From positions 13,826,001 to 13,890,000 of the forward strand of contig CM114271.1 of NCBI GenBank assembly GCA_050084515.1: a stretch of 64,000 bases of DNA. The letters run 5' to 3'. Made by a program: the position numbers and the translations under genes. Below are positions 3,658 to 64,000 of this stretch, piece by piece; the first letter of the stretch is position 1, and each line of letters begins with the position of its first letter. The stretch comes from Blasia pusilla (Eukaryota). The notes under the pieces were generated by a model. That model searched no databases. It was not told the origin of the DNA and worked only from the letters and a program-made list of their open reading frames with translations.

Positions 3658-6016
3658 TGTCATGACCATACAGATTATGTCGTAGAGTATAGTGTGCTAG
3701 TAGAGGCCATACCTTATGTAGGGTTGTAGTGTCTAGGTAGAGATGCGGTTTCATAGATAGGGTTGGGGGTTACTCAGTTGAGGGTGACTTTTCCAGTAGG
3801 GCCCGCTCTTAGGTTGGAGGATATAATGTGGAGTGCACTCAAAGAACTGTTAGTTTTTTGAGTTGAGCTTGTTGTATTGGGAGTTAGCCTTGGTAGTGAG
3901 TAGAGCTCTTGGCTATGGTGGTTCCCGCAAGCTTCAACCTGGATTCTCCCATCGTGGAGTGGGTTTGGCTCGATTGTATGTGATTCTATACGTGTTCTAT
4001 GACAGTAGGTCTTCCATGGATTTCACTCAAAGAACTAGAGTAGATCGATGGTAGCTTCGATTGTGGATCAGTAGGATCTGGTTAGGGTTGATTGTGTACT
4101 CAACCGTGGATGTTCGTGGCTTGTGGCCTATGTTGGAGGTATGAATCTGGTGCATGGTTGATTGGGAAAGAAGAACCTTGCGGAGAGCTTTCCAACGCGC
4201 TTTAGATCACCGGATTTTGTTAAGGGAGTTGGAAGTTATCAAGGATTGAAGATTCTGGTTCGTGTTCGACGGTTTTCCGATGTGGGGGGCTAGGAGTGCG
4301 GAAGCTCCGTTGAAGTTCATCCAGATCGGGTGAGAGGTTCCTATTGCTACCTGTATTGTGATCTCATGTGAAGCTATCTGCTTGAGTGTGTGGAGCGTTG
4401 CAGATTTTTGTGTGCATGAATCTGGGCGGAAGCGTTGTCGGATTTGCGATTCTGGAGGTGTATGGACACCAAGTTTTTCTGATTTTTAGCTCGGAGTACA
4501 GAGCTTGGTTGTAGCTAATTTTTTGTGGAGAGATATCTATGGTGACCAATTGAATTGTGGTTGAAACAGATTCAATTTTGGTTGAGGATTTGTGGAGTAA
4601 TTGCTGATCGAAATTTTGCAGCAGCAGATCGGAGGGGCTGGTTGGTTGATGATTCGCCCATTGTTGGAGATGCCTATCCCGTTAGGAGAACCTTGGTTTG
4701 GCCTCTCTCCATAGAGAAGCATGGCGAAGTGTGGCGATAGGGGCATGTCTTGAGCATTTCTCGGCGTTTCGAGGTTTCGAGGCTTCGAGGCAACTCGTGG
4801 TAGCTCGGGGCGAGTGGGCGTGAGAGGCGGAGCAAGGAGCAAGGAGCAAGGAGCAAGCAAGCAAACTTGCTTGCTTGGGCGTGAGGTAATTTTTTCAGGA
4901 TATGTGAGTTTAGTGTAGCATAACTCGTCACCCATCTTTGGGCTATTCTGCCTGGAAGACGCTTAACTGCTGAGTTCTTAACTATGCCAGTGTACACACT
5001 GGTGTAGCTCATTTGGTGATTTTAGGAGATGTATTAGGCACTTTATGCATCTCGGGTTTTTGGTTGATGAACCTCTAGCGCATAGTACAGTATAGCCTCT
5101 CCATGCATGTGATATTTTCAAGTGCACGAGTCCAACTAGCACGTCATCGACCCGCGGCGGAGTAGCTATTGTGTTAGAATTGTGTGGTGGGTTCTGTGGA
5201 TTCAGGGGGCGCCACATTTGGTGGATTGTGTTACCTTGATTTCCATTTTCCATTGGAGGGTTGTCGTTGGACTTCTTGTGTTTGGATCCCCTCCATCGTT
5301 GCTTCTTGCTTGCGCGCCCATTGTTAGGGTTGACGCTGATTTCCAGAGTAGTTTTATCGCTGTGTGCTACCGGTAGTGAGGCTGGAGTGATGACCAGTAG
5401 ACCGTGGGAGGTTTCTTGTGCTGATGACAGGTTAAGTTGCCTACACCCATAGCTAGTAGAGCTAGAATAGTACAACGACATCGACGTCTTGGTTACTTAG
5501 TGATGATTTGGTGGTGGTGCGGCATCGGCGTTGGTCATCACGGAGCTGTCTGGTGGTCTTGTTGGGGACCGTGGTACAGACAATGGTGGTTTTACATGGA
5601 GTGGATTGAGGTATCGGCTACCTTTTCCACTTTCGACGGTTGATGAAGAGGAGGACGAGGGTGTTCTAAACACAGAGTCTGCTATGTTGTTATCGAGGGT
5701 TGCAGCTCCATTGATTTGGGACATGGATGGGATATACGGGGCCATGAAGGGCCCACAATGATACTCGGGTGCAGTGGGCACCATTGAGTTGGAGGACTTC
5801 ATTCAGGAGTTTGATACGTGGTGTGATATGCAGATGTTGCGGAACGCCACATTGTTTACACCCTTCTTGGCTTGGAAGGGGTTGTTTGAACACTTAGAGG
5901 GACCACCCATGGATGATTACCATGAGTTTAGGAAGGATCATGTTGCTGAGATTGAGGCGTGGAGACAATGTTTCCACGCTATGTGTCTATCACCCATGGT
6001 GGTATTGGTAGTAGTG
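3658..6016 (+). mobile_element. 5' part of a second copy of the DNMT/PHD Gypsy family B (A1 repeat 3658-4025, self-priming site, leader, gag N-terminus); 3'-truncated
   Basis: Colinear reverse complement of about 51180-48855. The gag fragments ...GLRYRLPFPL... and GTIELEDFIQEFDTWCD match ORF 48569-49345. Confidence 0.92.
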
Positions 6017-31881: not shown

Positions 31882-32355
31882 TGTCGTGTGAATCCACATC
31901 ATCATACAACAGACATCGGTGATATACCATACTCACATACATACATAACATAGATGAGAGCATACACAAACACAAGTGTACCACAATTGAAATCCGTGAA
32001 AAACCTACTGTCATAAAACACGTATAGAATCACATACAATCGAGCCAAACCCACTCCACGACGGGAGAATCTAGGTTGAAGCTTGCGGGAACTATCATGG
32101 CCAAGAGCTCTACTCGCTACCAAGGCTAATTCCCAACGCAACAGGCTCAACTCAAAGAACTAATTGTTCTTTGAGTGCACTCCACGCTATATCCTCTAAC
32201 CTAAGAGCGGGCCCTATTGGAAAAGTCACCCTCAACTGAGTAACCCCCAACCCTATGTATGAAACCGCATCTCTACTTAGACACTACGGCCCTACATAAG
32301 GTATGGCCTCTACTAGCACACTATACTCTACGACATAATCCGTATGGTCATGATA
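31882..32355 (-). mobile_element. Solo A+B terminal unit of family B
   Basis: Near-identical to 41310-41783, with a perfect 4-bp TSD CCTT (31878-31881 / 32356-32359). Confidence 0.93.
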
Positions 32356-36724: not shown

Positions 36725-37702
36725 TGTCACGACCCTCATAACCAAATAACACCAAATAGGCGCCAAGCGGAACATCAGAACTCAAGTGGACACACCGTAC
36801 AATGATCGCGCTTTGGAAAGGCTTTTGGAACGTCTCTTGGAAAAGTCCAAGAGACGAAACGCGAAATAGAGTTGTGCATTTCATGCATTAGTGGTCGCAA
36901 CCAAGAAACCTAGACCAAACGCGAGCCAAGACTTAAGATGAGTTGAGTCTTGGAAGGTTGGTTGCCATAGAGGTGAGAACCAATTTTGGAACACGAATAG
37001 CGTTTGGGGAATTTGAATGTATTTTGGACCATGAACTTTAGCCCCAAGATGAATTTGGGACAAATAATAGTACCTTGATAAGCTTATCTTGAAACGCTTC
37101 CAATGCACCAAAGATCTTAGCAAACGCATAAGTACAGACTGAGATATTGGCCAAAAATGACTGTGAGAGCAATCGGGTTGAGGGCCAATTGGAGAGGCCC
37201 AGGTGTCTTTCCCTAAATGTAGGGAACCCTGGAGATCCCCAGAAGAACTAGTAAGGGAGGAGTGTCTCCAAGATGTCTTGGAACACGAATTCCCACTTTG
37301 AGCACCAAATGGCGTCTCAGAGGTACGGGATGGAACGGGAGTTTAGCCTGGTAACTCGAAATCCAAACGTGATCCAAGAGAGTGGACTTTGTATGCCACA
37401 CTTGGATTCCGACCCAAGATTCCCTTTGTGCGAGTCTCGATTAGGGACTCATTAGATGTCCATCGGACTGTTAGAACCACCATGCGCGAAACGTCATTTG
37501 AGGTTTCTCAACCGACGAGAAAGTATGTCCCAAGTCTTTCGAGACTTGCTTGTGTTGTAAACCGCGAAACTAGGAAGGTTGAGCTTGATGAGAGACCGAG
37601 ACGAGAACTCGGAAAGTTAGCCCGCTGATTGATCCAAGACCCGACTAACTAGAGTGCGTATTTAGATGCAGATCAACTTTGAGAGCGTGACCTATTGAAC
37701 GT

Positions 37703-38931
37703 TGTCGTGTCGAGAGCCTTTCTTTGAGTAAGGGCGGGCCTTCTAGTTACGGCGTACGTGATCAATGCAAGGTGAACTCTCTAAGAAGTTCTCCTTTTTC
37801 AATAAAAAAATTATTATGTATACTCTCCATTCTCTTACGACAAGTATCACAAATGGAATTGTCGAGGCGATCACTTCTTCGTAACATCGGACCCTGAAAT
37901 TCTTAATTATAAAATCCCTATAAACTACTTTACATTTGTACACGAGGAAGATAGCACAACTAGTGTTAAATCCTACTTTAGTAGGCCTATTGACGTCCAT
38001 GGATCGCTATATAAGGACATACAAAGTACAATCCCATGTTCTTTCGTGTATGACGATAGGAAGAATCAACAGAGTTGGAGATTGCATGACCTGGTTCATT
38101 AACTTCTCCCCAAAGTGATAAACTAAATAGCAAGTGAACCAGTGCCTATCTACAAAGAGTACCTTGACATGGTAAGGATTGAGGAAATGAAAGTAGGACA
38201 CAACTCGTGCTCCATCTCTATTCATGCTTGAAAGACATTACCTACCCTCCTCAAGAATGGGCTTTGACGAAATTATTCTACCAAGAAGGGTAATCCACTC
38301 CTCTAAGGTGACAAGCTTCTCATCTCCACACATACCACACTCTAGAAACCTCTCGAAGAATAGATCATGATCAAGTTACTCTCCCAAGAAGGGTGATCCA
38401 CTCTCATTGGAAGAGCAAGCAATCTCAAAGCCATACACTTGAGAATGACACGAGAGACTCAAGATGTGAAATAGAAGGTGATGAACCCTTTCCTTGAAGG
38501 CCCCTCCTCTTTATATACTCATGAGGGATCCATAAGAGTACGAAATAGAGCTAATCTTATCTTGTGCCACATAACTACCTCTCAAGGCTTAGCCAATCAT
38601 ATTTTGACACAAGTAGATTTCCTCTTATCTCTTCAAAAATATTCTCTTTTATCCACTTGATATTTTCCAAATTACCCCAACTAACCTAGCCACCAACCAA
38701 GACTACTTTTACTTTTCATTAAAGCATCAACCTCACTACTTTACTTTTACAAAGTTATCTTTTATTTATTACCTCTTTTCTTAAAGTTGGGCCCACATAA
38801 AAGAGACACCATAAAGAGGTTTAAACATGGGAATTTTCTTTTCCTAAGCTAATTTACTTAATACTAATAAAACTCTATCTAACACTTAATGAGGAAAGAG
38901 TTTACACACTGGTTGATTTTACTATACGAAA
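37703..38931 (-). mobile_element. Solo LTR-like unit, family C, inside the family A 5' LTR
   Basis: TGTCGTGTCG...TATACGA(C>A)A termini with TSD ACGT/ACGC. Removing it restores GAACGCACGC as seen in the other family A LTRs. Near-identical to 43471-44744. Orientation is inferred. Confidence 0.88.
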
Positions 38932-38988
38932 ACGCACGCTTTTGCAACAACAAAGATTAACGTTCAAGGAGAGTAGGCGCACGGCACG

Positions 38989-40200: not shown

Positions 40201-42021
40201 TGCGTTTGTTGCTAAGCACTTATCCGCCGGCGGCTCGGAACTTAACATTAAAAAGGTTTGCTTTGATGAGGACATCAACCTTCTAAGGAGGGGTGAGTGT
40301 CGCAACCCTCATAACCAAACAACACCAAATAGGCGCCAAGCAGAACATGAGAACTCACGTGGACTCACCCTGCGATGATCGCCCTTTGGAAAGGCTTTTG
40401 GAACGTCTCTTGGAAAAGTCCAAGAGATGAAATGCGGGACAGAGTTGTGCATTTCATGCATTAGTGGTTGCAACCATGAAACCTAGACCAAACACGAGCC
40501 AAGACTTGAGATGAGTTGAGTCTTGGAAGGTTGGTTGCCAAAGAGGTGAGAACCAATTTTGGAACGCGACTAGCGTTTGGGGAATTTGAATGTGTTTTGG
40601 ACCATGAAGTTTAGCCCCAAGATTAATTTGGGACAAATAAGAGTGTGTTGGTAAGCTTATCTTGAAACGCCTCCAACGCACCAAAGATCTCAGCAAACGC
40701 ATAAGTACAGACTGAGATATTGGCCGAAAATGATTATGAGAGCAATCGAGTTGAGGGTCAATTGGTGAGGCCCGGGTGTCTTTCCCTAAATGTGGGGAAC
40801 CCTGGAGATTCCCAGAAGAACTAGTAAGGGAGGAGTGTCTCCAAGATGTCTTGGAACACAAATCCCCACTTTGAGCATCAAACGGCGTTTCACAGGCACG
40901 GGATGGAACGGGAATCTGGCGTTGGAACTCAAAACCCAAACGTGATCCAAGGGAGTGGACTTTGTACGCCACACTTGGATTCCAACCCAAGATTCACTTT
41001 GTGCGAGTCTCGGTTAGGGACTCATTGGATGTCCATTGGACAGTTGGAACCGCGAGGCGCGAAACGCCGTTTGACGTTCTTGAACCAACTAGAAAGTCTG
41101 TCCCAAGTCTTTCAAGACTTGCCTGTATTATAAACTGTGAAACTAGGAAAATTGAGCTTGATGAGAGGCCCAGATGAGAACTCAAAAAGTTAGCCCGTTG
41201 ATTGATCCAAGACTCAACTAACCAGAGTGCGTGTTTGGATGCAGACCAATATTGAGAGCGTGATCTACCGAACGCACGCTTCCGCAACAACAAAAATTAA
41301 GGTTCAAGGTGTCGTGTGAATCCACATCGTCATACAACATACATCGCTGACATACCATACTCACATACATACATAATATAGACGAGAGCATACACAAACA
41401 CAAGTGTACCACAATTGAAATCCGTGAAAGACCTACTGTCATAAAACACGTATAGAATCACATACAATCGAGCCAAACCCACTCCACGATGGGAGAATCC
41501 AGGTTGAAGCTTGCGAGAACCACCATAGCCAAGAGCTCTACTCACTACCAAGGCTAACTCCCAACGCAATAGGCTCAACTAAAAGAACTAACTGTTCTTT
41601 GAGTGCACTCCACACTATATCCCCCAACCTAAGAGCGGGCCCTAGTGGAAAAGTCACCCTCAACTGAGTAACCCCCAACCCTATGTATGAAACCGCATCT
41701 CTACCTAGACACTACGGCCCTACATAAGGTATGGCCTCTACTAGCACACTATACTCTACGACAGAATCCGTATGGTCATGACAACTGTCGTGCGAATCCA
41801 CATCATCATACAACATACATCGCTGACATAAGCATCCAAAAACACAAGTTTACCACAACTCGCCCCCTTAACTAGCGGTTAGGTCCCTCTAACTCCCAGG
41901 TAGCCATATACATCTACTACATGCTTGGATGCACGAATCAGAAGGCCGGGTGTTAGGTTGCCCCATCGTTAGTCGCACATCAGTAATCCATATCATGCAA
42001 AGATCAAGTCATCTACCTCTC

Positions 42022-43470
42022 CTAAGTACATCGAGGACAAACCCACCTTCTAGTAGAAACAACTTCCATACATGGAGTTAAACACATCATGTGCCAACCC
42101 CTAGAACACTGGTCACACACAAACATACGGGCTGCGTTACCAGCAGACCCACACAACATGCACCTCAAGCTAGCACGTATCATGGCTAAGCTTGGGTCAA
42201 CAGTACCATCCACATTTGGAAGATGACATGGCGCACAATTACGCACATGGTCCTTCCAAACAACTCCATCACGACCCTCCAACATGAGAATTCCATAATC
42301 TAACACCTCGCGCACTTGTAAAATAGTGCGGCCTGCCGTCACATCCAACGTTGTCGGTGTAATCTGATGCAAATAGACATAGTCCCCCACATGGAACCTA
42401 CAAATCAATGGTCGATAACCTCCACCTCGAATGGTTGCATACCGCAACGTATCCCTGTGTTGAGAAATGGCAAGATTCTCAAAGGCTGTTGGCATAACTC
42501 TCCGAAAAGAGCTCGCCGCACGAGAACACACTTTCATCCACATCTCTCGGGTCATCAAGGTTCACCACCTCACTAGACTCCGGACCAATTGTCTGGCGGC
42601 AAGTCCGGATCTCGCCGTATAATGTAAAAATAAGGTGAGAAGGAAGCCAAGGATGTTTGGCGACTGAACCTATACCCCATGGCTAACCATGGCAACTGAA
42701 TATCCTAGTCTCCAAGATGCCCCTTCTGTAGGCCATACTTGCGCAATGCCCTCTTCACCGTCTGAACCAAACCAAACCTCAGCCAAACCATCCGCCTCTG
42801 GATGATCTGGAGACGTGGTCTGATGATCAAACAACGCCTTGTCACACAAGACTTGAAACTATGTACCCTGGTCGGTCAGCACTTCAGCTGGTGCACCAAA
42901 ATGACTAAGCACTCTATCAAGTTACGCATACGCCGTTCCCTCACTTGCCTTGTCAGGTAATGCCACCAACTCAATCCACTTGGAGAAGTGCTCCACCATC
43001 ACCAACACATATCGATGATGTCGTACAGTCAACGGTTACGGTCCCGCAAAGTCCACACTCCAACGATAACCCAACCCCATAATAGCCAAGGGGTGTAACT
43101 GTGGTGTAGGGGCATTGAATGATACCCTCACCCAGTCACAAACCATACAATGTGACACCAACTGCTGCACCTGAGTATGCATGCCACGCCACCAATACTG
43201 ACCAAGGAGTAAGCTATACGTACGCTTTACCCCAAAATGTCCCAACTCCTCATGGGCATGTCGCACAATGCGCTCTCTCTGAGCCAAATGCGGCACTACT
43301 TGTACTCTACCATCCTCCCACACACAGAGAATATGTGTTCCCTCCAATCGATACCTCTTAGCACATTGAAGAACATGGTCTCGCTCCTTGGCACTCACTA
43401 TGCCTTGCACCCTACTGGTCCGTAGGAACTCCAACACCAAACCATCATCATGAATATCACGTTGATCCGT
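42022..43470 (-). pseudogene. Integrase (HHCC, DDE core, SH3-like C-terminus) with C-terminal PHD finger
   Basis: HAHEELGHFG...CMVC, WSVDFAGP, VEHFSKWIELVAL, VLTDQGT, FHVGDYVYL, and the C4HC3 motif CMLC...CDQC..GWHMMC...WVCPRC. Confidence 0.93.
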
Positions 43471-44744
43471 TGTCGTGTCGAGAGCCTTTCTTCGAGCAAG
43501 GGCGGGCCTTCTAGCTACGGTAGATGCGGTCGATGCAAGGTGAACTCTCTAAGAAGTTCTCCTTTTTCAATACAAAATTATGATGTACACTCTCCATTCT
43601 CTCACGAGAGGTATCACAAATGGAAGTGCTGAGGTGATCACTTCTTCGTAACATCGGATCCCAAAATTCCTAACTATAAAATCCCTATAAACTATTTTAC
43701 GCTTGTACACGAGGAAGATAGCACACCTAGTATTAAACCCTACTTGAGCAGGCCTATTGACATCCATGGGTCGCTATATAAGGACATACAAAGTACAATC
43801 CCATGTCCTTCCATACGTGACGATAGGAAGAATCATTGGAGTTGGAGATTACATGACCTGATTCATGAACGCCTCCCCAAAGTGATAAACTAAATATCGA
43901 GTGAACCAGTGTCTATCTACAAAGAGTACCTTGACATGGTATGGATTGAGGAAACGAAAGTCGGGCACAACTCGTGCTCCACCCCTATCCTTGCTTGACA
44001 GACATTCTTTTCTCTCCTCAAGAATGGATTTTGGCAGAATTATTCTCCCAAGAGGGGTAATCCACTCTCATTGGGGAAGTAACAAGCCAAAACATTCACT
44101 ATTTTAGTATGACTAAACTCCTCTGAGGTGACAAACCTCTCATCTCCCCACACACTTACACCACACTCTAGAAACCTCTCGAAGAATAGACCATGATCAA
44201 GTTACTCTCCCAAGAGGGGTGATGCACTCTCATTGGAAGAGCAAGCAATCCCAAAGCCATACACTCAAGAAAGACACGACAGACACAAGATGTGAAATAG
44301 AAGGTGATGAACCCTTGAAGGTCTCTCCTCTTTATATACTCACAAGGGATCCACAAGAGTACGAAATAGAGCTTATCTTATCTTGTGCCACATGGCTTCC
44401 TCTCAAGACTTAGCCAATCACATTTTGATACAAATAGATTTCCTCTTATCTCTTCCAAAATATCCTCTTTTACCCACTTGGTATTTTCCAAATTACCCCA
44501 ACTAACCTAGCCACCAACCAAGACTACTTTTTCTTTTCATTAAAGCAACGACTTTACTTTTATAAAGTCATCTTTTATTTATTACATCTTTTTCTAAAGT
44601 TGGGCCCGCATAAAAGAGGCACCATAAAGAGGTTTAAACATGGGGATTTCCTTTTCCTAAGCTAATTTACTTAATACTAATAAAACTCTATCTAACACTT
44701 AACGAGGAAAGAGTTTACACATTGGCTGATTTTACTATACGACA
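43471..44744 (-). mobile_element. Solo LTR-like unit, family C, inside family B pol
   Basis: TGTCGT...ACGACA termini with a perfect 4-bp TSD CCGT. Excision restores the in-frame GDGGTDQRD. Orientation is inferred. Confidence 0.92.
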
Positions 44745-44929
44745 CCGTACCACCATCTCCAACCTTAAGATCTGAAGGCTGGCCATCTACCCTATGATTG
44801 GAGTAAGATTTCATGTGGTCCTCCATACTAGAGTCCACCCCTAACCAACATAAAAAGGCGGATGCATGCCAACCTGGCACCACCTCCTCATCAACCTCGC
44901 CATGCCATCTAGCCCCAGTTGCATCCTCT

Positions 44930-46047
44930 TGGCTAGTACATGGGTTCCTACTCAACCCATTAGCATCCATGTTGGCAACTCCAGGTCTATATACCACCTG
45001 GAAGTCATACTCATGTAAGATAAGAGCCCATTGTGCAAGCTTCCCTGTAAGCTTGTCAGACTCCATCAACCACTTGAGCGGCTGGTGATCAGTAACAAGG
45101 GTAAACTGTATGCCAAACAAATAATACCCAAAGTGTGCCACAGCCCACACTACTGACAAACACTCTCCCTCATATGAACTGTAGCGCGACTCCGCTGCAT
45201 TATTCGAACGACTTGCATAGGCCATCATAAACTCCATGTGCTCATCATCATGTTGGGTCAACACCGCTCCAAGTCCCAACTTACTCCAATCAGCGTGTAA
45301 CTGAAATGGGCACCCTCTGATAGGTCTCCTCAAGATAGGGGCCGCCACCAACTGGGCCTTGAGCTCCACAAAAGCTCTCTCCTGATCATCTCCCTAGTGC
45401 CACTCCTGATCTGATTTCAACAATTGGTTCAAAGGCTTTGCCATAACACTAAATCCCTTCACATACCTCCGATAGTAGTTCGCCAATCCCATGAATGCCC
45501 GAACTCTACTCACATCTACCGAACGAGGAATAAGTGCAATAGCCTCCACCTTTGCTTGCTGAACTCCCAAACCACCTGGATAGATCACATGACCCAAGTA
45601 CTCAACATCCTCATGGAAGACCTTACACTTTCCTGGATGCAAACGTAGACCATGAGCTTTCAACCGCTCAAACACAATGTGCAAATGTATCTGATGCTCC
45701 TCCACCGTGTTACTTAACACCAAGATATCATCAATGTAATACCGAACAGAATCCAACCTTGTTAGGATCCTGTCCATCACTCTTTGAAACTCGGCAGGTG
45801 CATTCTTCAACCCAAAGGGTAAGAATTTCCACTGGTACAAACAATCCTTGCCATGAGAGTTGACACCCCAAAATGTTGTCTTGGCCTTGTCACTCTCTTG
45901 AATCGGCAACTGATGGTATCCTGCCCGAAGATCCAAAGTACTAAAAATCTTTGCCTGTCCCACCACATCAAAGATCTCCTCAGGTGTAGGCATGGCATAC
46001 CTATCAGCCTTGGTCTGCCGATTGATAGGACGGTAATCTCCACACAT
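44930..46047 (-). pseudogene. Gypsy reverse transcriptase and RNase H
   Basis: MCGDYRPIN, FSTLDLRAGYHQ, LPFGLKNAP and YIDDIL (RT). FQLHADWSKLGLGAVL, YSSYEGECL and LVTDHQPL (RNase H). Confidence 0.96.
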
Positions 46048-46489
46048 CCGCCTATTCGTATACCGGGTCCAACCAAAGCACCCAAATCCTTCATGCTAAA
46101 GGCAAAACAACTCCTATAAGCACGTAGGAACTGTGTCAAGCGTCGATTCTCACCTCCCGTAAGCTTGGGCCCAAGTAATGGCTCCCAAGTTTCCTCCACT
46201 GGCACACTAGAGAGAGAGGACGATGCCATTGGCTGCTACGCAACCCCCTCACAAGATAGTACACCCTTAGCTACACCATCACCTGAGCAAATAACTCCTC
46301 CACCATCATGAGCAACCAACTCCACATGCCCAGCCATTACATCCCATTTACTCCAAGGATGCAAAATAATACTCTCCTCGCCCCCATCCGATGCCTCTAC
46401 CGTCCCGGTAGCCATCGTGCTCATCACAAGGGGTGGAAGACCCACAAACATAGTCCGGAGTCGACGCTGCTCGGCCATACCAAGACTCA

Positions 46490-47430
46490 AAATCCAAGTC
46501 AAAAAATTCAAGTCCATGGCCTGACCCAACACATCACGTCGTGAAGCCTCAGAAATGGAAGCAACCGCTGTCACACCAGTAGCAAATCCCATCGCACGCT
46601 CTCTCTCATCAACGTTAGGCTCCACCAACTGTGGCACATGAGAATCCCATACAAGCTCGGGACCACCTTCCCTGTAGGCATGTGACAAGGGAAAACTCAA
46701 AAATGTGGGTAGTGCCATCCTAGGCTGGCCCACACGGTTCACCACTGCCATAGATGACTGATCAATAACCCTCACCACCTGAGAAAGTCGCCCAGTATCC
46801 AAGATACTATCCTTTGTAAGGCAAGGATCCGCTGCCTTTGCATCATATGCTCGACGTATAACCTCCTAGGCAACAAGTTTGTCCACCACAAGCGTGGGCG
46901 ATGTGCACGCTGAGCCAACTCACGCTGCATCCAACAACACCGCTGGTCCAATCCAAGACCGCACCTCATGAACACTCGCCATCATCCAGTTCCGAGTGTC
47001 ACCCAACAATGGAACATTCTCCAGAATGTAAGCCGGAGCACATGCCTGATGAACCTGAAGATGTCGTAACACCCGTAACATCTCCCAAAAAAATCGAGAC
47101 CTAGGATCGTGTAATCCCTCACCACGACCAGCACGTGTATGACCCTAACATGGCCGTCCAGCAATCACCAAATCCACAGGACCAACCCTCTCAAGGTCCT
47201 GCGCCCCCAACAATGCAATGTGTGACGGCAAAGCACGCTGGTACCCACGAATAGCTGATGGCGGCAACAACTCAGGATATCTCCGCATTAACTGACCAAT
47301 ATTTCGGGATGAGCCTCTCTGGGCTGTCTCATCTCGCTCCACATATACGTATCTCCGCACAGGAATAACGGTTTGCAACACTGCAGCCAAACCAGTGCTA
47401 ATCCCACCAAAGAGATCTAACACACAAATG
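46490..47430 (-). pseudogene. DNMT3-like C5 cytosine DNA methyltransferase domain in pol
   Basis: Motif I VLDLFGGIST, II YVYVERD, IV GPVDLVIAGRPC(Q>*)G, VI YILENVP, VIII LDAA*VGS/RAHRPRLWWTNL, IX ERERAMGF and X RRDVLGQAMD, in canonical order. Confidence 0.92.
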
Positions 47431-48018
47431 CCCTCCGGCGGATACTGCCATACAATAGGTGTAGTGGACTCCTACTTCTAGTGCCAACTGGACTAGAAGT
47501 AGGAGTCCGCCATGGGGCCTCCTCTTCCTCGTGAGGTATAACAGCCTCACACCAAGCCTCCTCCACTAGGCGATCAGCCTCTTGCCGTAGTGCACTGCCT
47601 GAACTCCAAAGTGGCACATCCAACAATGAGGATGCCACTACTGCAAAACTAGGGACTTCCTCTACCTCCTCATGCACAGGAGAATACATAGCATAAACAT
47701 TACTCTCCAAAAAATCTCCTCGCCAAGTGACTACTCCACTAAAACTAGCCACAGATGCTAACACCGTTGGGGAAGACCCTCCTGGTCGAGCTCCATAAAT
47801 AAATCTCACAGGAACTTGGCTCATACGTCCATCTCCGGACTGCCAACCAGGTCTATAAGACGTTGTCTCAGTCCAGTAATCCATCTGAAAACCCATATAG
47901 TAGCCAACTTCTGCTCCAACTGCTCAATCATGGCAGCCATAGCTGACTCTATCGTAGTGGTAGGGGTAGCCACCGTAGGCTCTCCAACCACTGGTCCACC
48001 TCTACCACCTCTACCACC

Positions 48019-49345
48019 TCAGCCTCTCGGAGCTACTCCACCACGGCCGCGGCTTGATCTCAACTCTGGATGAAGATCAAAGCAACGCTCTCGAGGATGA
48101 TCTGGTCTCCCGCAATGATCACACTGAGTTGGGGCCGACTGAGGCCCATCCTCCAAAGTCCGTCTCCCATCCTCTTGGGGACAAAACTTCCTAACATGAT
48201 CACCTCCACATGTCCAACATGATTGTCCTTGCTGCGGGGCAGCAAATGAAGGCAATGGTCTCTACACAAGTGTCCCTCTAGAACCTGACTGAGGTCGTGT
48301 GTACCCCCCATAACTCCCGCTACTACTACCACCACCACTACTACGAGACTGTGAGGTGGGCTGCTGAACACGAGAAGTAGTAGTTGTATCCCTACTGAAT
48401 GCAGATGTCACCACTCTCTCCTTCACAATGTTAAGCTCAATCTTCTCAGATAGAGCAAACACATGGGTCAATGTGGATGAATCATCACTCATAAGAGTAG
48501 CATCATGTACCCTGCGGCGCAACTCTCTGTCCAAGATCCCATACCAAAATTGACTGCTCGAGCCTCGATCACACCTGGGTAATCGAAATCAAGCGTCGCA
48601 TACGAGTGTATGCCTCACGAAGACTCTCACCAATCTTTCGCTCAAATTCCTGAAGACTCCTTAACTTCTCTGTCTTCACTCCCTGATAGTTCTTCTTCAA
48701 CCTCTTGAAGAACTCTGCAACCGGGCTGAACGATGGTGGGGCACTAGTACCTCCACTAGTACTCCCATTGGTACCTCCATGGGTACCTCCACTGATACCC
48801 CCGCTCCGGCTCATACTCGTACCACTCAACGTCGGGCTGGCTGGCATAGTAGGAGCACTACTACCAATACCACCATGGGTGATAGATACATAGCCTGGAG
48901 ACCAATATTGTCTCCACGCCTCAATCTCAGCAACATGGTCCTTCCTAAACTCATGGTAATCATCCATGGGTGGTCCCTCCAAGTGCTTAAACAACCCCTT
49001 CCAAGCCAGGAAGGGTGTAAACAACGTGGCGTTCCGCAACATCTCCATATCACACCACGTATCAAACTCATGCATGAAGTCCTCCAACTCAATGGTGCCC
49101 ACTGCACTCGAGTATCGACGTGGGCTCTTCATGGCCCCATATATCCCGTCCATGTCCCAAATCAATGGAGCTGCAACACTCGATAACAACGTAGAAGACT
49201 CGGTGTTTGGAACACCCTCGTCCTCCTCTTCATCAACCGTCGGAAGTGGAAAAGGTAGCCGATACCTCAATCCACTCCATGTGAAACCACCACTGTCCGC
49301 ACCACGATCCCCAACCAAACCACCAGACAACTCCGTGATGACCAA
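48019..49345 (-). pseudogene. Family B gag with two zinc knuckles (frameshifted)
   Basis: ORFs 48569-49345, 48262-48534 and 48019-48255. GESLREAYTRM, CWTCGGDHVRKFC and CDHCGRPDHPRERC. Confidence 0.88.
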
Positions 49346-51206
49346 CGCCGATGCCGTACCACCACCAAATTACCACCACTAAGTAACCAAGTGACGTTGA
49401 TGTCGCTGTACTATTCTAGCTCTACTAGCTATGAGTGTAGGCAACCTAACATGTCATCAACACAAGAAGCCTCCCACGGTCTATTGGTCATCACTCCAGC
49501 CTCACTACCGATAGCACACAGGAGTAACACTACTCTGGATATCAACGTCAACCCTAACAATGGGCGTGCAAGCAAGAAGCAACGATGGAGAGGATCCAAA
49601 CACAGGAAGTCCAACGACAACCCTCCAATCGCAAATGGAAATCAAGGTAACACAATCCACCAAACGTGGTGCCCCCTGAATCCACAGAACCCACCACACA
49701 ATTCTAACCCAATAGCTACTCCGTCGGGTCGATGATGTGCTAGTCGAACTCGCAGCACCTGAAAATATCATCTGCATGGAGAGGCTACACCGTACTATGC
49801 GCTAGAGGTCCATCAACCAAAAACTTGAGATGCATAAAGCGCCTAACACATCTCCAAACAGCACCAAATAAGCTACACCAGTGTGTACACAGGCATAGTT
49901 AAGAACTCTGCAATTAAGCGTCTTCCAGGCAGAATAGTTCAAAGATGGGTGACCAATTATGCAACACTCAAATCACAAATCCTGCAAAAACTGCCTCACG
50001 CCCAAGCAAGCAAGCTTGCTTGCTTGCTCCTTACTCCGCCTCTCACGCCCACTCGCCCTGAGCTACCACAAGTTGCCTCGAAGCCTCGAAGCCTCAAAAC
50101 GCCGAGAAATGCTCAAGACATGCCCCCTTCGCCACGCTTCTCCATGCTTCGCTATGGAGAGAGGCCCAACCAGGGCGCCCCCAACGGGATAGGCGTCTCC
50201 AACAACAGACGAGTCACCAACCAACCAGCCCCTCCGATTATTACTCCACAAATCCTCGACCAAAATTGAATCTGTTCCGACCAAAATTCAATTGACCACC
50301 ATAGTTATCTCTCCACAAAAAAATCAGCTACAACCAAGCTCTGTACTCCGAGCTAAAAATCAGACAAACTTGCTGTCCATACACCTCCAGAATCGCAAAT
50401 CCGGCAGCGCTTCCGCCCAGATTCATGCACGCAAAAATCCGCAACGCTCCACACACTCAAGCAGATAGATTCACATGAGATCACAATACAAATAGCAACA
50501 GGAACCGCTCACCCAATCTGAACTTCAACAGAGCTTCCGCACTCCAAGCTCTCCACATCAAAAAACCGTCGAACACGAACCATAATCTTCAATCCTTGAT
50601 AACTTCCAACTCCCTTGACAAAATTCGGCGATCTAAAACGCGTTGGAAAGATCTCAGCAAGGCGCTTCTTTCCCAATCAACCACGCACCAGATTCCCACC
50701 TCCAACATAGGCCACAAGCCACGAACATCCACGGCTGAGTACACAATCAGCCCTAACCAGATCCTACTGATCCACAATCGAAGCTACCATAGATCTACTC
50801 TAGTTCTTTGAGTGAAATCCATGAAAGACCTATTGTCATAAAACACGTATAGAATCACATACAATCGAGCCAAACCCACTCCACAATGGGAGAATCCAGG
50901 TCGAAGCTTGCGGGAACCACCATAGCCAAGAGCTCTACTCGCTACCAAGGCTAGTTCCCAACGCAACAAGCTCAACTAAAAGAACTAACTGTTCTTTGAG
51001 TGTTCTCCACACTATATCCCCCAACCTAAGAGCGGGCCCTACTGGAAAAGTCACCCTCAACTGAGTAACCCCCAACCCTATGTATGAAACCGCATCTCTA
51101 CCTAGACACTGCGGCCCTACATAAGGTATGGCCTCTACTAGCACACTATACTCTACGACATAATCCGTATGGTCATGACAAAGGAGAGTAGGCGCACGAC
51201 ACATAT

Positions 51207-51900
51207 GTTCTAACTACAACATGAGACTCTTACATGATAATAAGTATTTATAGTTCCTAAGTTCTATTAGATTCTCGCAACCTACAATTAAGTAGATTAA
51301 CAATTTCCTCAAGGATTGCTTTGTTGATGAATCTACTACCATGGACTTTATACAGTCTGAGACTTAAATAAACTTTTCCCATCATAGCAACGTCCAACTA
51401 TTCAATACCATAAGTGTCAAGAGGTATTTTGGCTATACCTACATATTACTAGTACAAGTCCAAACTAACACTACATCATCACCTAAGTTCAGGTGTTGGA
51501 TAAATGATGATGAATTCCATATATCAGTTAGCGTACATTGCAATTGGTTGCACTGTAATGCTTACTTCAAATGTCAAAATATCCATACAAGCAGCAAATG
51601 GATCTCTTGGTATTATAATTGATATTCATTACAAAGACGGAATGCTCAACAATATAATTTTACGAATAACTTAGTCGAGTACAATTGTCAACATTACTAG
51701 AACAAAATTCCTCTTCTCTTATGTATGGTTTAGATTGTAGGTACTACAAGAGGACATTCCCACTCATTCCTGGGATATGCAATGATAGGCCATAAGACTC
51801 AAGGACTCATAGTCAATGGTAGGTGCCTACTTATCATAAAGTCTTCCTTTGCTAAGGGATAAGTGTATATCATGCTCTCACGTGTCCGCAACATGTAACA
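51207..51900 (+). mobile_element. Continuation of the Helitron PIF1 helicase after the nested LTR block
   Basis: Degenerate motifs NYNMR, AANGS, YAMIGHKTQG (H-K-x-Q-G) and YIMLSRV. Confidence 0.7.
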
Positions 51901-54900
51901 ATTGTGAATTCTTAGAAAATTACAACACTAGATTTTGCTACTTATGGACAACATGGCTAGTTTCTTGTTTCTATTTTCTTCTCCTATAACTACTCTATTC
52001 TTTAGAATAGAGTAGTTTGAAGAATAGAGTAGTTATAGAAATGGCAATGAATGAAGGCTCATCACATTCTAAAGGTAAGAAGCAAGAAACTATAGTAGTT
52101 CCACCGATGTCCTACATGCAGCTAGTTCATCACGTAACATCCACTATCCACACAACAAATACAATTCTATCAAATGAAGATAACACCTCCATGCGCTAAG
52201 ATCATCACACACCATATCAGACCTCTCAAGTAAACATCAATTTCTTACTTCAACTTTTTGCTCCAACCCAACTCTACTAGTTGCCCAATACGTACCTACA
52301 AACTACATGGATTTTGCAAGCATGATACTTAGTGATGTACATAGCATCCAAGACAAACCTACGCCACGTCTTGTACAACCAACAGAGAATCAAATGAGGT
52401 TTTCTAATAACCTTGGCCTCGTCACTAAATTTTGGGAGAATGGAGTTACGAGCAAGTAGATTCAAGCCATCATAACCTAGGGCAGAGCATGGGATCAAAA
52501 GTTCTGTAATGTCAACAAAGATGCTCATGCCGCAAGTTCACTCTTCCCTACTACTCATGGTGTAAAATTCTCATTCTCTTCATTCCATCCATTTGCTACA
52601 GCTCAAATCTTTGATCTATTCCACTTCTATTTCCCTCGCTAGTTCCAAGTATGCAGAAAGAGGCTCTATGTTACACGAACATTGACTTCAAAGAGACATC
52701 AGTGATGTGCTCACAGGGGAATAGGCTGTTTATATCACTCTTGGTGGTATTTGCTTGGATCACCTTAGGTCCCTACAACACGAGTTCCATCTCCCAATCC
52801 ACATGGTTATTGACTTGTCTCCTAATAAAGCCTCCCATCTAATTAATAGGCTCAAACTTGCACACTCTAGCGGTGGACTCCCAAGTTTTACACCTGAGCA
52901 GGGTTACATCCCTCATGTCATCCCCAATGATTTTAAGGACATCGCTATTGCTGCCAATACATTGGATATTAGCACTGAGCGTTTAGGATTTGATTGTTCT
53001 ACTCATGTGACTTCACCGGCCAAAAGAAAATGCACCTAGGCTACTCACATGTAATTAGCTCTTTGCATCCTTCTCCCAATTCCTCTCTTCAATTTTGCTC
53101 ACATATTTGTCCTTCATGACATCTTTTCATGCACTTCAAACTCTTTCTTCTGCAACATAGCAGATGTTACTTTCTTCTCATGAATTCCTATTCCACATCA
53201 TAAATCTATGACATTCTTACACCTACACTCTTTTCTTTAGTGAGTATTACTACATTTCATTTCTTCATCATTTTTACTTCACAAATTTTGCTCTTCCTTA
53301 GTATTCATATCACTTAGTGCAACTAACATGTGTTTTGGACATTTTCGATACTCGCTTCATTGTACATTGTCTTTTTTTACTCATGCACCTACTTTCAACT
53401 TCTATACCTTTTCTTGCCTTCTATATACTAACAATTACTATACATCTTACACTTGTTCATGCGGCGACCATGGGCTCCATTTACATCTCTCTACTTCAGC
53501 AATGAGCAATCATACTTAGTTCCTGCAAAATTGTACCAGAAGACATTGCCGCAACTTGTGGAGGTTGAAGAACAACTTGGTACTCTCGAGATAAACATGG
53601 GACTACATGAGGAGCTAGTGTCATCTCTTTATGAAGAGATAGATATCCTCAAATCTCATGTTTCTATTCATAGAGATAGATTGAAAGAGGTTTGTGATAT
53701 TCAACCATGTATGACCACAATCTACATTTCAATCATTTTCCTTTTCAATCATTGTGTTCTTCACTTTCTGTTCTTCAAATTACCGTTAATTACACACAAC
53801 ACATAAGCTTCATTTTTCATACTTTCATGATTGTTCTTCCAAAATTCTTCCACATTTCCACCGGCATCTATACTTCCCTGAGGAGGAAATCCCAAAATGG
53901 ATCCTAGTGGACATAAGCGAGAAGCTTGTTTTTTTTTTTCAAATGTACCAGTAAGGTACCCGTGCAATGCACGGAAAATAAAAAAGTGTTTGAAAAACTT
54001 TTGTTAATGAAGGGATTAATGATGCTGCACACAAATTCAAACTTTTTTCTTCCTGCCCATAACACGTGAAACATTTTTTTTCTTGCCCAATTACCACATG
54101 TCAATAAGACCTTAAGAAAAAGGAGTCAATAATAGTTTTTTAAAATTAGATATAAATTTTCAAAAAAAATGATTTAAATTTTAAGTATAATTTACAATTT
54201 TTAAAATCTTAGAAGAGTAAAAAAATTTCACCTTTAAATAACACCCATCTCCCCTGAATAATTTCACTCCTCCGTAGAAGCTCAAACAAGAACTATTCTT
54301 TCCCTTCCATTCTTCCCAACAAAATAACATTCACTAACCAAAATCTTAGCTAATTTTAATTAATGAAATCATTTTATTTTTCCATTAAAATTCATTTTAA
54401 TTTTCCAAAATATACCATGCAAATTAATAAAATTATTTTTTAAAATGATATGCTACTTACTTATAATAAATTTTAAATATGACTTTTTTTCTAGAATCTC
54501 AAAAGAATAACAATATTTCACTATTCTTAGTAATTAAAATCCTCCATTCAAATTTAAATGATATCCTAATACACTAAGTAATTTTATTTTTCCATAAAAT
54601 TAAAAAAAATCTACTCCTCTATTAACTTTTTATTTCCTTTTTTTCATCAAATATGAAAAGAGAAAAAAAATCTAAAATTTTGGTTATTAATTATATTTTA
54701 TTAATATTTATAATCACCCAATATAATCTTAAATTAATTATTATTCTATGTATTTCATTCAAATTCTTTCTATTTCTAGAGTGTTGCCTATTCCCTAGCA
54801 TATTTCTTATTATGCATATGTGGTCATATAACGAAGGGGTTCGTGCAGCGGCCATCTCCGACCTTGTGGCGTGCTAGCCGTACACTAGAGATATACTCTC

Positions 54901-55057
54901 GGGACGACAATTTTTCTTTTGCCTTGCACAGAAAAAGCGGTACTACGTTCTTCTTCTCTTCTTGTGCACCGTTTTGCGCGCAACTGTACAGCAGCGGTGG
55001 GGTGATTGGAGAGGTCGGGTTGATCCCGAGCCTCGCAGTGGTTTTGTGGAGAGGCGT

Positions 55058-58000
55058 ATGCTCGCGTGCAAGAGAATAATTGCCCGGTCTGTTCATTCGT
55101 TGCCGGTGGTGCTACTCGGAACGACGACGGTTTCAATGGGGTTTCACGTGTCTCCGACCACCCGGATTGGGTTTATCGGAGCGGGTCAAATGGCAGAAGC
55201 CATTGCTCGTGGATTGGTAGACAAGGGAGTTATTCCTCCTGAGCAGATGACAACTTCGGATGTCAGTTTAAGCCGCTGTAAGGTGTTCGAAGGTTTCGGT
55301 GTTTCTTCGCGGTCCTCCAATGTTGAGGTAAGCAAGCCACATGTAAGAATTTGACATCCTGGGGTAGAAGGGCGCATGGTGACCGGATGAGTACCAAAAT
55401 TTTCATTCTTTGTACTCTCTCTCTCTCCGTGGACAATAATCGCTTCATTCATTTATTCTCTTACATAGCTGCTAGGAAACGTCTGGCCCTCTGCAAGCAT
55501 TCAAAGCCAAAGGTCCAGGGTTTAGGGTTTATGGTAGACAAAGGATACCAGATGCTGGTGTAATTCTCCGATTCAGTGCACCGAGTGAAGTCTAGAGCGG
55601 ACGACTTGACAACACGATGATTCGAAGATGAGGGGGTCGTATGATTCGACTGAAACTGAACTCAGCTACTCTTTTTTAACGACGGTCGAACTTGGCTCGT
55701 CGGAACTGATTAGACCGGTCTGGTCGGAGGGAGATAAGTCTTCTCGAGGCAGTCGCTAAAGTTGCAATCAAGTCGAAGCATTCGACCGTGAAAGAAATTC
55801 AGACGCTTTGTTTTACCTGCCGATAAGCTGGTTAATTGGAACACCGAGGCCGGTGGGGTTAGAGGCAATTTTCCGTAGGCAATTGCAGAAACTGCTGGCA
55901 ATGTTTTGAAGATCAGCAGAACAACACTAATGAGAGCGCTAGCGAGCGTAGCTTCAAAAGGATCCAGAGGTGAATTATGACAGACATCGTAGGAGAAGTA
56001 TACCGTGGCCGGAATGTTCTTCATCGCAGCCCCACCATTTCAAGAATGCGCCAACGAGCGGATGTTGATTTGTGGTGAAAGTAATTAATCAGCCATCAAA
56101 AGCGTGATCATAGGGATTCTCTGGTTTCACAACCACCGCCAGAAAAAGGAATTGGATTGGCGTCATCGAGTCCACTTGAGGATTCCTGAGGTTGCAAAAT
56201 CAGCATGTCATTTCCGTCCCATGGAGCGAGTGTTCATCGCATTCTCCGCAACAACCGCTGATGGAATCCATGTAGAAGACGACCAGCTTAACACGTGGAT
56301 TTGCACACATTAATTGATGTGAAGTGTCTTTTCCGGTGTTTGCATCATTCACAACTCCGTCATGAGTGGGGGGTACTTAAACCATGTTGCTGGTTCGTGG
56401 GGTGACTTGACGTTAGACATTCAGATAATGCACTGACTTGCAGCTTTTCTTTGCAGGTGGCTGAGAATAGCAACGTTATCATCGTTGCTGTGAAACCACA
56501 ATATGGTGAGTCTGATTGTGTTGTTTCAAAGTCATGATCCTACAGGTCAAGTTTCCTAAGGAAGGCGTTTGCAGTTAAAGGAATGAACATTTCGTCACCA
56601 TTACTAATGCAGCTCACGGTCCAGCTAACCAAATTAAACAATCACGGTTTGCTAGCTGTTTCTGTACAAGCTTGTCCTGTTCTCTTTCAATGTGCCTCCT
56701 TTTTATTGCAAACATTGAACGTCACAACTCATAATCAATGGTCTTGGGAAACGAGTTCTGAGTCTGAGATTGGATTTTTGGCATCTCCGTAGTGCAGACA
56801 GTGCTCAATGATGCACGACCAAAGCTAACGAAGGATCATCTGTTAGTATCCATAGCTGCTGGCGTCAAGTTAAAAGATCTGCAGGTTTGGAATCACTTGC
56901 GTGAGATTGTCATTTTGTTGGGTCTGAGAGTACTGTTTGTTGCATTTTTTCTTCTTATGCACACTTACTCACGGTTGAGCATTCTCAAGTCTAGTGGGCA
57001 ACAACGGAGTAGGGAAATTTGTGTGCTGTTGTGGATGCTAATGCTAGTTTATGACAACAGTAATGATGGCTTTCATAGAAAATAGCTATAGAATTTGCTT
57101 TGTAGAGAATGGAACTTGAGTTTCTGTGGTGGTTGCAGACCTGGGCAGGGCATGCCAGAGTGGTGAGGGTGATGCCAAACACTCCTTGCCTTGTCGGTGA
57201 AACTGCTGCAGGTTTATCTCTACTTCTGTAAAGCAATATTCAATGGAGATATGTACTCGGGTGTTTTGAAAATGTAAACCTTCCATTTGAAAGGTTGTCT
57301 GTTAGTTGAAAGAGATGGAGTCAAACTGGGCGGATCAGAAAGTTTGACAGGTTTCCAGTAACCAAGATTTATATCTCATGTTGAAGAACTTCTTTTTACC
57401 AGAGTTTTATGGCTCAGGAGTGGACTGGGATCGCCATCCTTAAATGGAAAAATTAGAACTCATGCATAGGATTAGCAGCATGAACGAGAGATAATCGAGA
57501 TATAATCATCATTGTGACTTCTCTCTTAAGCAGTGGACACATACTTAAGAGCTGGGCCGTCAGCAAACCTGGGCATTTCAGACTTGTAACTATCAGCAAA
57601 ATGTTTTACAGGAGGATGGGGACAGTAGCCATCAACTCTTGGAGAAATGCCATTTCCTACTTGTGCATTTTTTAGCAGAAAAGTTTTCTGTTCAATGATT
57701 TTGTCATCTGGTGATCTGTTTGGGCAGCCTTAAGTGTGGGTACACTAGCTACTCCAGAGGATGTGGAACTGGTACAGGGGCTGTTCTCTGCGCTCGGCAA
57801 GATCCATGTTGTCGACGAGCACTTATTGAATGCGGTGACAGGCCTCAGGTACAGTAACACTTGGTTCTGAAAAAGTTTTCCTTATGTTCTAATAAACCAG
57901 CTCCTCTCTTATCAATTCTTTACAAAGTCTTAAAATACGCCTAGCAGCTGAAGTGTAACTTGGCATATTTCTGTACAACACCTGGAAATTGGAAGAATCA

Positions 58001-63519: not shown

Positions 63520-64000
63520 TGTCGTGCGCCTACTCTCCTCGAACGTCAATCTGAGTGTTGCGGAAGTGTATGTAAAGTAGGACACGCTTTCATCGCCAAC
63601 CTGCACCTAAACGCACTTCACGTTAGTCTGGCTTTGGGTCAAGCAGCCTTCCAATCCACCGAGTCCTCGACTCGGCACCTCATCCAGCTCAACCTTCCCT
63701 CATTCCTAGGTTCCCAACACAGGCAAGTCTTCCGAGACTTTGGACACAGTTTTTGGTTAGTCCAGCACCTAAATATAGGCAGACGTCATTTTAGGTGCTG
63801 GACTAACCAAAAATTGTGTCCGCCCGCCTAGCGGTCCAAATTGTCCAACGGACCTTGCATGAGTCCCCAACCAAAACTCAAAATTATAAGTCGCGAGTTG
63901 GAATCCAATAGGGACCTCCGAAATCCACTCTGTTGGACTTGGTTCGGGTTTCGAATCCCAATGCCAAACTCCCAATCCGTTCCGTGCCCTTGAGTCGCAC
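63520..64000 (-). mobile_element. Family A-related LTR running off the window end
   Basis: Starts TGTCGTGCGCCTACTCTCC, the reverse complement of the family A LTR 3' end. No adjacent PBS, so it is a 3' LTR or a solo LTR. Confidence 0.85.

Follow-up and report, generated by a model that had tools for sequence, protein, structure and literature searches.

A Gypsy-DNMT3-type retrotransposon with split terminal repeats is probably primed by its own RNA

How does a retrotransposon begin reverse transcription when no tRNA-type primer-binding site (PBS) abuts its terminal repeat? The question is raised by a retroelement, hereafter element 1, on the reverse strand of a 64,000-nucleotide stretch of Blasia pusilla DNA (contig CM114271.1, positions 13,826,001 to 13,890,000; this whole stretch is called the window). 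Judged from its sequence, element 1 is a streptophyte Gypsy-DNMT3 (KnitGypsy-Dnmt3-like) retrotransposon, a known group, and its terminal repeats are split into two parts, A and B, each present twice (A1 and A2, B1 and B2). A preliminary description of the window had proposed a 'Tf1-like' mechanism, in which the 5′ end of the element's own RNA serves as primer. Following up that proposal, we find that the 13 nucleotides at 50801-50813 are probably the PBS of a self-priming retrotransposon.

The letters and coordinates given earlier for this site (50813-50801, and 4025-4037 in a truncated second copy, copy 2) hold in both copies: on the element strand A1 is followed by CTCAAAGAACTAGAG, and in copy 2 the repeat ends at the equivalent base and is followed by identical letters. 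Base 50813 is the last that A1 and A2 have in common. The reverse complement of the site, here called M2, lies inside A at the distance from a TATA-like box that had been proposed, 30 nt downstream of an ATATA at 51017-51013. The reported degrees of match were also accurate. M2 agrees with the PBS complement at 13 of 13 positions in a solo A+B copy (32162-32150), the version that we take as ancestral; it agrees at 12 of 13 in A1 (50987-50975) and A2 (41590-41578), both of which carry the same G>T, and likewise in copy 2 (3851-3863), where a C>T leaves 12 Watson-Crick pairs and one G-U pair. As had been noticed, an extra copy of the motif, M1 (51001-50991), stands upstream of M2 and forms an inverted repeat with it in all four A copies of the window; M1 and the A-end/PBS have a 12-nt direct repeat, CACTCAAAGAAC, in common.

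Searched across the window with up to two mismatches, the 13-mer has 14 matches against 2.82 expected, a count that none of 100 shuffles reached. Ten of these matches belong to the three sites that each of the four A copies should have, and the motif occurs nowhere else in the element, neither at the junction of B with A (B/A) nor at that of A with B (A/B). The longest exact run in element 1, 9 nt, makes a weak test, 51 of 2000 shuffles of A doing as well. When an RNA assumed to start at M2 was folded, the minimum-energy and centroid structures both paired its first 9-13 nt with the PBS.

We then asked how the two sites behave in relatives, for which metagenome contigs were scanned with an alignment of Pol proteins, giving 80 loci. 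An alignment made with MAFFT put the primer sites of two lineages in different columns, with a register shift of 1-2 nt, and we therefore tabulated the duplexes with a script, anchored at their shared AGUU/AACU end, rather than counting from alignment columns. One locus, L009, is closely related, with an A repeat that matches that of the window at 72% identity over 241 nt. Its A1 carries TAGTTCTTTGAGT 32 nt downstream of a TATA-like box, and in its A2 a clean TATAAAA stands 31 nt upstream of the site. M1 is present here as well. After A1 this locus reads ACTCAAAGAATTA, in which a C>T opposite G keeps the pairing as 12 Watson-Crick pairs and one G-U.

A second lineage includes four loci (L027, L080, L044 and L026) whose A cannot be aligned to that of the window beyond the first 14 nt (13 of 14 identical). 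These loci have AGTTTTTCTAGAA 32 nt downstream of TATAAAAGG, which contains TATAAAA, and the 13 nt from the last base of their A1, TTCTAGAAAAACT, are complementary to AGTTTTTCTAGAA. The duplex is complete in L027 (13/13), has 12 of 13 pairs in L080 and L044, and retains nine pairs and one G-U in L026, an old and decayed copy. In shuffles of A, the observed exact run was reached by 0 of 2000 for L027, 9 of 2000 for L009 and 14 of 2000 for L080.

Between the window family and the L027 lineage, four of 12 pairs have changed on both sides (C-G>U-A, U-A>C-G, G-C>U-A and U-A>A-U); the other eight are the same in both, so that every pair is kept. Compensatory changes between the two sites in related families, which the preliminary description had named as a check, are thus present, and the G-U pair of L009 adds to them. 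The duplex starts in both lineages at the last base common to A1 and A2. The repeat would end where the 3′ end of a primer defines it, and a start at this boundary fits priming. The TATA-like box stands 30-32 nt upstream of the primer site in both. M1 is not the conserved feature, because it is absent from the second lineage.

No third sequence state was obtained from the other relatives, L002, L012, L029 and L036 being without a recognisable A1 and L021 without a repeat pair, nor from IMG/VR, which yielded only caulimovirus-like and insect gypsy/env contigs. One of these IMG/VR contigs, L081, resembles a gypsy element of the insect type and has an env-like open reading frame (ORF), though filed among viral contigs; L081, L082, L083 and L090 have identical ends of 78-123 nt, as circular assemblies do, and have no bearing on the site discussed here.

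The preliminary description had also stated that no TGG of the tRNA type abuts the repeat, and the first TGG past A1 indeed comes only at +24, none occurring for 23 nt. The first TGG after A1 stands at +23 in L009, in a context that differs from that of the window, and L027 has none within 30 nt. TGGTAGCTTCGATTGTGG at +24 was considered as a tRNA PBS and rejected for its distance from A and its non-conservation in L009; presumably it is also a poor fit to a tRNA T-arm. A tRNA-type PBS is easy to see where it exists, because in L059, a relative without the DNA methyltransferase (DNMT) domain, ordinary long terminal repeats (LTRs) of 710 bp are followed directly by a methionine-tRNA-type site, TGGTATCAGAGC. 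Ordinary long LTR pairs were seen in two such DNMT-less relatives (L059:6319-7045 and 12926-13635; L015:5769-6660 and 12959-13816), and the polypurine tract (PPT) of L059 reads AAGAAGGGAGGG. ARAGORN found no tRNA genes in the window and two, both Cys and neither matching the PBS, in 666,796 bases of the relatives' loci, too few for a test. Rfam gave no matches in 50600-51250 at E values up to 1. A scan for bacterial promoters and terminators found nothing, bacterial models being irrelevant to a eukaryote.

Element 1 is laid out as A1 - internal - PPT - B1 - GT - A2 - B2, a DIRS-like order (A-I-B-A-B, I being the internal region). BLAST finds four A copies in the window (51180-50814, 41783-41417, 3658-4024 and 32353-31989) at 94-96% identity. 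B measures 106 nt, and the copies after A2 (41415-41310) and after the solo A (31988-31882) are 95% alike. Three stranded raw RNA-seq runs with the same species label (X5, X6 and X7) contain RNA joints 41406>41851 (29, 48 and 29 reads), which show a full-length B before A2 in transcribed copies. At the B/A junction of the window family the RNA reads CA-GC-TG or CA-GT-TG, in joints 51180>41310 (36, 58 and 41 reads in X5, X6 and X7) and 51181>41310 (26, 36 and 18). The ends of the insertion are fixed by its 4-bp target duplication, CCTT, by an uninterrupted target, CTACTCTCCTTGAACG, at two paralogous empty sites (2422-2407 and 38976-38961), and by a contig of run X1 that joins 41289 to 51181. 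The solo A+B is likewise flanked by a perfect duplication, AAGG (32359-32356 and 31881-31878).

Region 40298-41309 had first been assigned to element 1, its relatives at 1430-3657 and 36725-38937 having that region beside integrase-like sequence. The empty-site comparison ruled this assignment out, and element 1 therefore inserted into an older repeat (40298-41309). Copies of this older family at 1430-3657, 36725-37701, 40298-41309 and 63529-63998 are about 70-89% alike; at 2458-3657 it adjoins integrase-PHD-like sequence 72% similar to element 1.

Because the PPT stands directly before B and the self-complementary PBS directly after A, the LTR in the sense of reverse transcription appears to be B+A, permuted relative to the integrated ends. 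Those ends (TGTCATG...CACGACA, with the 4-bp duplication) sit at the palindromic B/A junction inside the B+A LTR. The preliminary description, which treated A as an ordinary LTR, needs correction here: A is only part of a split terminal repeat, and the PBS abuts A1. On the self-priming reading, A1 carries the promoter and part of U3 plus R and U5.

The same arrangement recurs among the relatives. L026 has a complete A - coding - B - A - B, five loci (L002, L010, L026, L029 and L050) have B-A-B after pol, and L009 has A1 plus a cut A2. The B/A junction is kept as ...ACA-NN-TGTCATG... in L009, L010, L026 and L050. L009 has GGGGGGCGAG directly followed by TTGTGG as its equivalent of the PPT, and in five loci of the second lineage a G-run stands directly before the start of B (ATACATGAGAATTTC); in five, too, the end of A is joined directly to this B start. 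The plus-strand primer site thus abuts B in both lineages and the putative PBS abuts A. Two further loci (L011:3303-3500 and L012:6179-6370) end as PPT - B - flank with no A2-B2, and may be A-I-B insertions or products of recombination between B1 and B2. In L001:3300-3620, a relative of the L009 family, a deletion has brought the PHD finger's end up against A2 right at the self-primer site; its A2/B2 junction, TTTTCA-A-TTGTGG, equals that of the window.

The family is transcribed in sense. The whole element is covered in X5-X7, at a depth of about 10-30 on the 5′ side and 50-200 on the 3′ side, and sense reads outnumber antisense reads by 129 to 11, 145 to 1 and 121 to 2 in the bin 45164-45510 of the three runs.

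Several observations weigh against self-priming or limit the case for it. The duplex was recovered in no more than two independent sequence states, with a register between them that is ambiguous by 1-2 nt, and the relatives are metagenome contigs. The exact-run shuffles are uninformative for copies with a mismatch, and not significant for the decayed ones: of 2000 shuffles each, 1121 reached the run of L044, 1855 that of L026 and 722 the 7-nt run of copy 2. In element 1 itself, the G>T in both A copies places a U opposite C three pairs from the primer 3′ end; since both carry it, either transposition went ahead from an imperfect duplex or the mismatch came in as the element replicated. In any transcript that includes M1, this arm competes for M2, so that the motif could serve another RNA or DNA structure. 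Among the RNA end piles listed for X5-X7, none is a 5′-end pile at 50987; the only one in A lies at 51021 (A position 160) and consists of low-coordinate ends, that is, ends on the RNA 3′ side (21, 15 and 21 molecules in the three runs, next to depths of 29, 43 and 44). Finally, a cellular primer, for instance an internal tRNA fragment, could be used. The pile at 51021 may come from a 3′ end used by part of the RNA, or from the breakpoint of a subfamily; by an estimate from bin depths, summed A coverage roughly halves there.

The complementarity itself admits other explanations. The pairing of M2 with the PBS could be under selection as a stem of the 5′ leader, with a role in packaging, dimerisation, translation or access to the PBS, and a cellular RNA could prime nearby. 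Covariation shows pairing, not priming, RNA-seq does not place the transcription start, and half-tRNA primers occur in plant copia lineages according to the main text of PMC6317226. The PBS letters differ between lineages, however, and one cellular primer would have to match CTCAAAGAACTA and a different one TCTAGAAAAACT, each tracking its own M2. A leader stem also has to contend with a duplex that starts exactly at the repeat end in both lineages, and with the fact that no TGG abuts A and that Rfam returns nothing tRNA-like. We therefore regard it as unlikely, if the most serious of the competing accounts.

It is harder to believe that the complementarity is a by-product of regenerating split repeats, in which microhomology would allow a template switch that closes or permutes the cDNA, as has been proposed for DIRS-like elements. 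Such an account would suit the A-I-B-A-B layout, the difference between the integrated ends and those defined by PPT and PBS, and the 12-nt repeat that M1 shares with the A-end/PBS. The motif, however, is not at the B/A or A/B junctions nor elsewhere in the element, M1 is missing in the second lineage, and a PPT before B together with a PBS after A is just the arrangement to be expected from ordinary priming of the plus and minus strands. There is very little to be said for the remaining view, that M1, M2 and the PBS act as DNA, for example as protein-binding sites in a palindromic promoter element around the start with a copy downstream. M1 and M2 do make up an almost perfect inverted repeat on either side of the putative start in all four A copies and in L009, but the second lineage, which has no M1, keeps the M2-PBS complementarity with other letters. 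A protein site would keep its sequence and not covary, and the position at the repeat boundary would be left without an account. All three explanations are less likely than self-priming because the letters differ between lineages while the pairing, the distance from the TATA-like box and the start at the repeat boundary are kept. The earlier conclusion that the family is self-priming is thus supported by covariation, boundary position and the lack of a tRNA-type PBS, with a start site that is predicted.

We observed the complementarity and where it lies, the compensatory changes among relatives, the repeat order, the target duplications and transcription in sense. Around them a replication scheme can be drawn in which we infer where transcription starts, that the RNA is cut and acts as primer, and that a circular intermediate exists. 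Transcription would begin in A1 at the A of TAGTT (50986/50987), some 30 nt past the TATA-like box. Transcription starts typically fall at a pyrimidine-purine step, and one is common to both lineages at the proposed position. The first 12-13 nt of the RNA, M2, would fold back onto the complementary stretch of equal length whose first base is the last of A1, and a cut behind M2, as in Tf1, would free a 3′-OH. From there minus-strand DNA would be primed through the rest of A and would transfer to A2, plus-strand DNA would start at the PPT before B, and the product would be (B+A) - internal - (B+A). Integrase would then act on a form in which the A end and the B start are joined, such as a two-LTR circle, and cut one palindromic B/A junction. 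We propose integration from a joined form because the integrated order is A-I-B-A-B, bounded by TG...CA and flanked by a 4-bp duplication. The ends of L011 and L012 and the solo A-B of the window fit cutting at two junctions, and fit later recombination between repeats equally well.

More tentatively, and with the balance of probability against it, the scheme can be extended to the Gypsy-DNMT3 elements as a group. They would be self-primed, with B+A as the true LTR, and would integrate from a two-LTR circle or tandem and not from the ends of linear cDNA; the DDE integrase would cut a palindromic att junction, ...GTCACGACA-NN-TGTCATGAC..., inside the LTR and so produce A-I-B-A-B and the 4-bp duplication. 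Solo A-B and A-I-B forms (L011 and L012) would be by-products of cutting at both junctions, and M1 of the window family would mask the 3′ copy of the primer and leave the RNA 5′ end for the PBS. If true, this would be a retroelement with a DDE integrase and an obligatory circle-junction substrate, and a mechanistic bridge between LTR and DIRS-type layouts.

Table 1. Positions of the features of element 1 and its related copies in the window
Feature	Position	Strand	Remarks
5′ target-site duplication CCTT, element 1	51181..51184	-	same CCTT after B2
Repeat A1, 368 nt, TGTCATGACC...GGATTTCA	50813..51180	-	BLAST
TATA-like box ATATA within GGGGGATATAGTG	51013..51017	-	30 nt upstream of 50987
M1, upstream arm ACTCAAAGAAC, same sequence as PBS	50991..51001	-	inverted repeat with M2
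M2, proposed self-primer, TAGTTCTTTTAGT here, ancestral TAGTTCTTTGAGT	50975..50987	-	complementary to 50813-50801
Self-complementary PBS (putative), ACTCAAAGAACTA	50801..50813	-	starts at last base of A1; identical in copy 2
Internal region	41872..50800	-	Pfam and tblastn
Leader of internal region	about 1.4 kb	-	internal region
gag-like ORF	49369-48569	-	internal region
DNMT-like region	47429-46467	-	tblastn with P0025, P0001
Reverse transcriptase (RT)	46095-45394	-	Pfam RVT_1
RNase H	45393-44692	-	Pfam RT_RNaseH
Nested insertion, 1278 bp	44744-43467	-	between RNase H and integrase
Integrase zinc finger, core, PHD finger	43548-42022	-	Pfam and tblastn
Polypurine tract TTAAGGGGGCGAG	41859..41871	-	directly upstream of B1
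B1, short copy of repeat B (TTGTGG...CGCACGACA)	41786..41858	-	about 33 nt shorter than B2
GT spacer, palindromic B/A junction ...GACA-GT-TGTC...	41784..41785	-	sequence
Repeat A2	41416..41783	-	96% identical to A1
B2, terminal copy of repeat B, ending ...CACACGACA	41310..41415	-	sequence
3′ target-site duplication CCTT, element 1	41306..41309	-	follows B2
Copy 2: A 3658-4025, M1 3837-3847, M2 3851-3863, PBS 4025-4037	3658..4037	+	truncated at about 6016
Solo A+B, perfect M2 at 32162-32150	31882..32355	-	flanking 4-bp duplication AAGG

The assignment of element 1 to the Gypsy-DNMT3 group comes from its coding content (Table 1). Pfam recognises RVT_1, RT_RNaseH, Integrase_H2C2 and PHD in the internal ORFs. 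By tblastn the element is collinear with the metagenome protein P0025 and with P0001; the first of these has the Pfam order DNMT (DNA_methylase) - RT (RVT_1) - RNase H - H2C2 - rve - PHD. The DNMT-like region matches residues 1-329 of P0025, a protein with PF00145, and P0001 at 64%; a Pfam search of element 1's own broken ORFs at E 0.01 did not find the DNMT domain. The rve region is covered by a tblastn match at 43485-42028. The C-terminus of the integrase is a PHD finger (PF00628) and not a chromodomain, PF00385 being absent by Pfam from the window ORFs and from P0025. In the same sequences Pfam matched no Phage_integrase (tyrosine recombinase), and an H2C2 + rve integrase is present instead. 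The closest relatives of the RT are liverwort proteins, from Marchantia polymorpha (84%; it carries PF00145) and Calypogeia fissa (79%). Further RT matches come from Klebsormidium and Closterium; many combine DNA_methylase, rve and PHD, and several have both PF00145 and PF00628.

The nested insertion of 1278 bp is absent from transcribed copies, in which the RNA joint 43466>44745 is supported by 65, 55 and 83 reads (X5, X6 and X7). A copy of this insertion, 85% similar, lies at 37700-38937 and adjoins the older repeat at 36725-37701. Elsewhere in the window we noted a Ty3-capsid/gag ORF just upstream of the solo A+B (32396-32809, - strand) and, on the + strand, fragments of UPF0172 (PF03665; 6759-7178), of a PIF1-like helicase (36201-36557) and of an F420_oxidored-like gene (54878-55351).

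Self-priming is established for Tf1 and has been proposed for Tj1, as set out in the body of PMC4600332, and it is predicted for 12% of the plant LTR elements surveyed in the main text of PMC6317226. Tf1 and Tf2 of S. pombe and Tj1 of S. japonicus resemble element 1 in having no tRNA-type PBS but, directly 3′ of the repeat, a PBS complementary to the 5′ end of their own RNA (PMC4600332, body text), which in element 1 is a predicted end; another point in common is the TATA-like box some 30 nt upstream of the site in element 1. The window duplex is 12-13 nt long rather than 11, a figure for Tf1 that was taken from the preliminary description, the portion of PMC4600332 used here giving no 'first 11'. 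Unlike these yeast elements, element 1 has a PHD finger and not a chromodomain, a DNMT in Pol, split repeats and the extra masking arm M1, and its cleavage and priming are predicted. The label 'Tf1-like' is apt for the mechanism only and does not imply membership of the Tf1/sushi lineage, the PHD finger standing in place of the chromodomain.

Among plants, self-complementary PBSs have been predicted from sequence for Tcn1 chromoviruses of mosses and club-mosses and for TAR Ty1/copia elements (Neumann et al. 2019, PMC6317226, main text). That text, apart from its additional files, contains no mention of Marchantia, Klebsormidium or methyltransferase. Self-priming, so far mostly a matter of Tf1/sushi with predictions for two plant lineages, would gain in range by its occurrence, backed by covariation, in the DNMT3-carrying Gypsy clade of streptophytes.

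In coding content element 1 resembles KnitGypsy-Dnmt3 of Klebsormidium nitens, whose Gypsy Pol also includes a methyltransferase of the DNMT3 type (de Mendoza et al. 2018, PMC5890265, body text); the name 'Gypsy-DNMT3' for the streptophyte group is used in the text of bioRxiv 10.64898/2026.05.21.726589. The copy in the window differs in being degenerate and in coming from a liverwort-like genome (best match 84%). The repeat layout of KnitGypsy-Dnmt3 is already in print (PMC5890265, Fig. 4c legend), and the accounts of it, in their main text, do not mention priming, the positions of PPT and PBS, target duplications or the palindromic B/A junction. In the literature searched, supplements apart, we found no description of priming in the Gypsy-DNMT3 clade. 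DIRS-like repeats on a Gypsy body have been noted before, and we met no explanation of them in that literature. As far as it goes, the combination of self-priming with a permuted LTR in Gypsy-DNMT3 is new, the layout itself being known. For Gypsy-bodied elements with DIRS-like repeats, the present reading would fix where reverse transcription starts and ends, and would turn an odd repeat map into a testable replication model in a family that is transcribed in public RNA runs.

The order A - coding - B - A - B is called 'typical of DIRS' in PMC5890265 (Fig. 1e legend), and element 1 has it in common with DIRS-order elements (PAT- and Ngaro-like elements and SymbioDIRS-Dnmt3). DIRS elements encode a tyrosine recombinase, whereas element 1 has a DDE integrase (H2C2 + rve) and 4-bp target duplications. 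To our knowledge, DIRS insertions are without target-site duplications. A further likeness is to the junction of a retroviral two-LTR circle: the B/A junction of the window, ...GACA-NN-TGTC..., resembles abutted LTR ends, and the A2/B2 junction resembles U5 joined to U3. The two-LTR circle junction has been considered as an integrase substrate; retroviral circles of this kind are regarded as dead ends. The permuted layout of element 1 would, unlike that of retroviruses, make the joined form obligatory.

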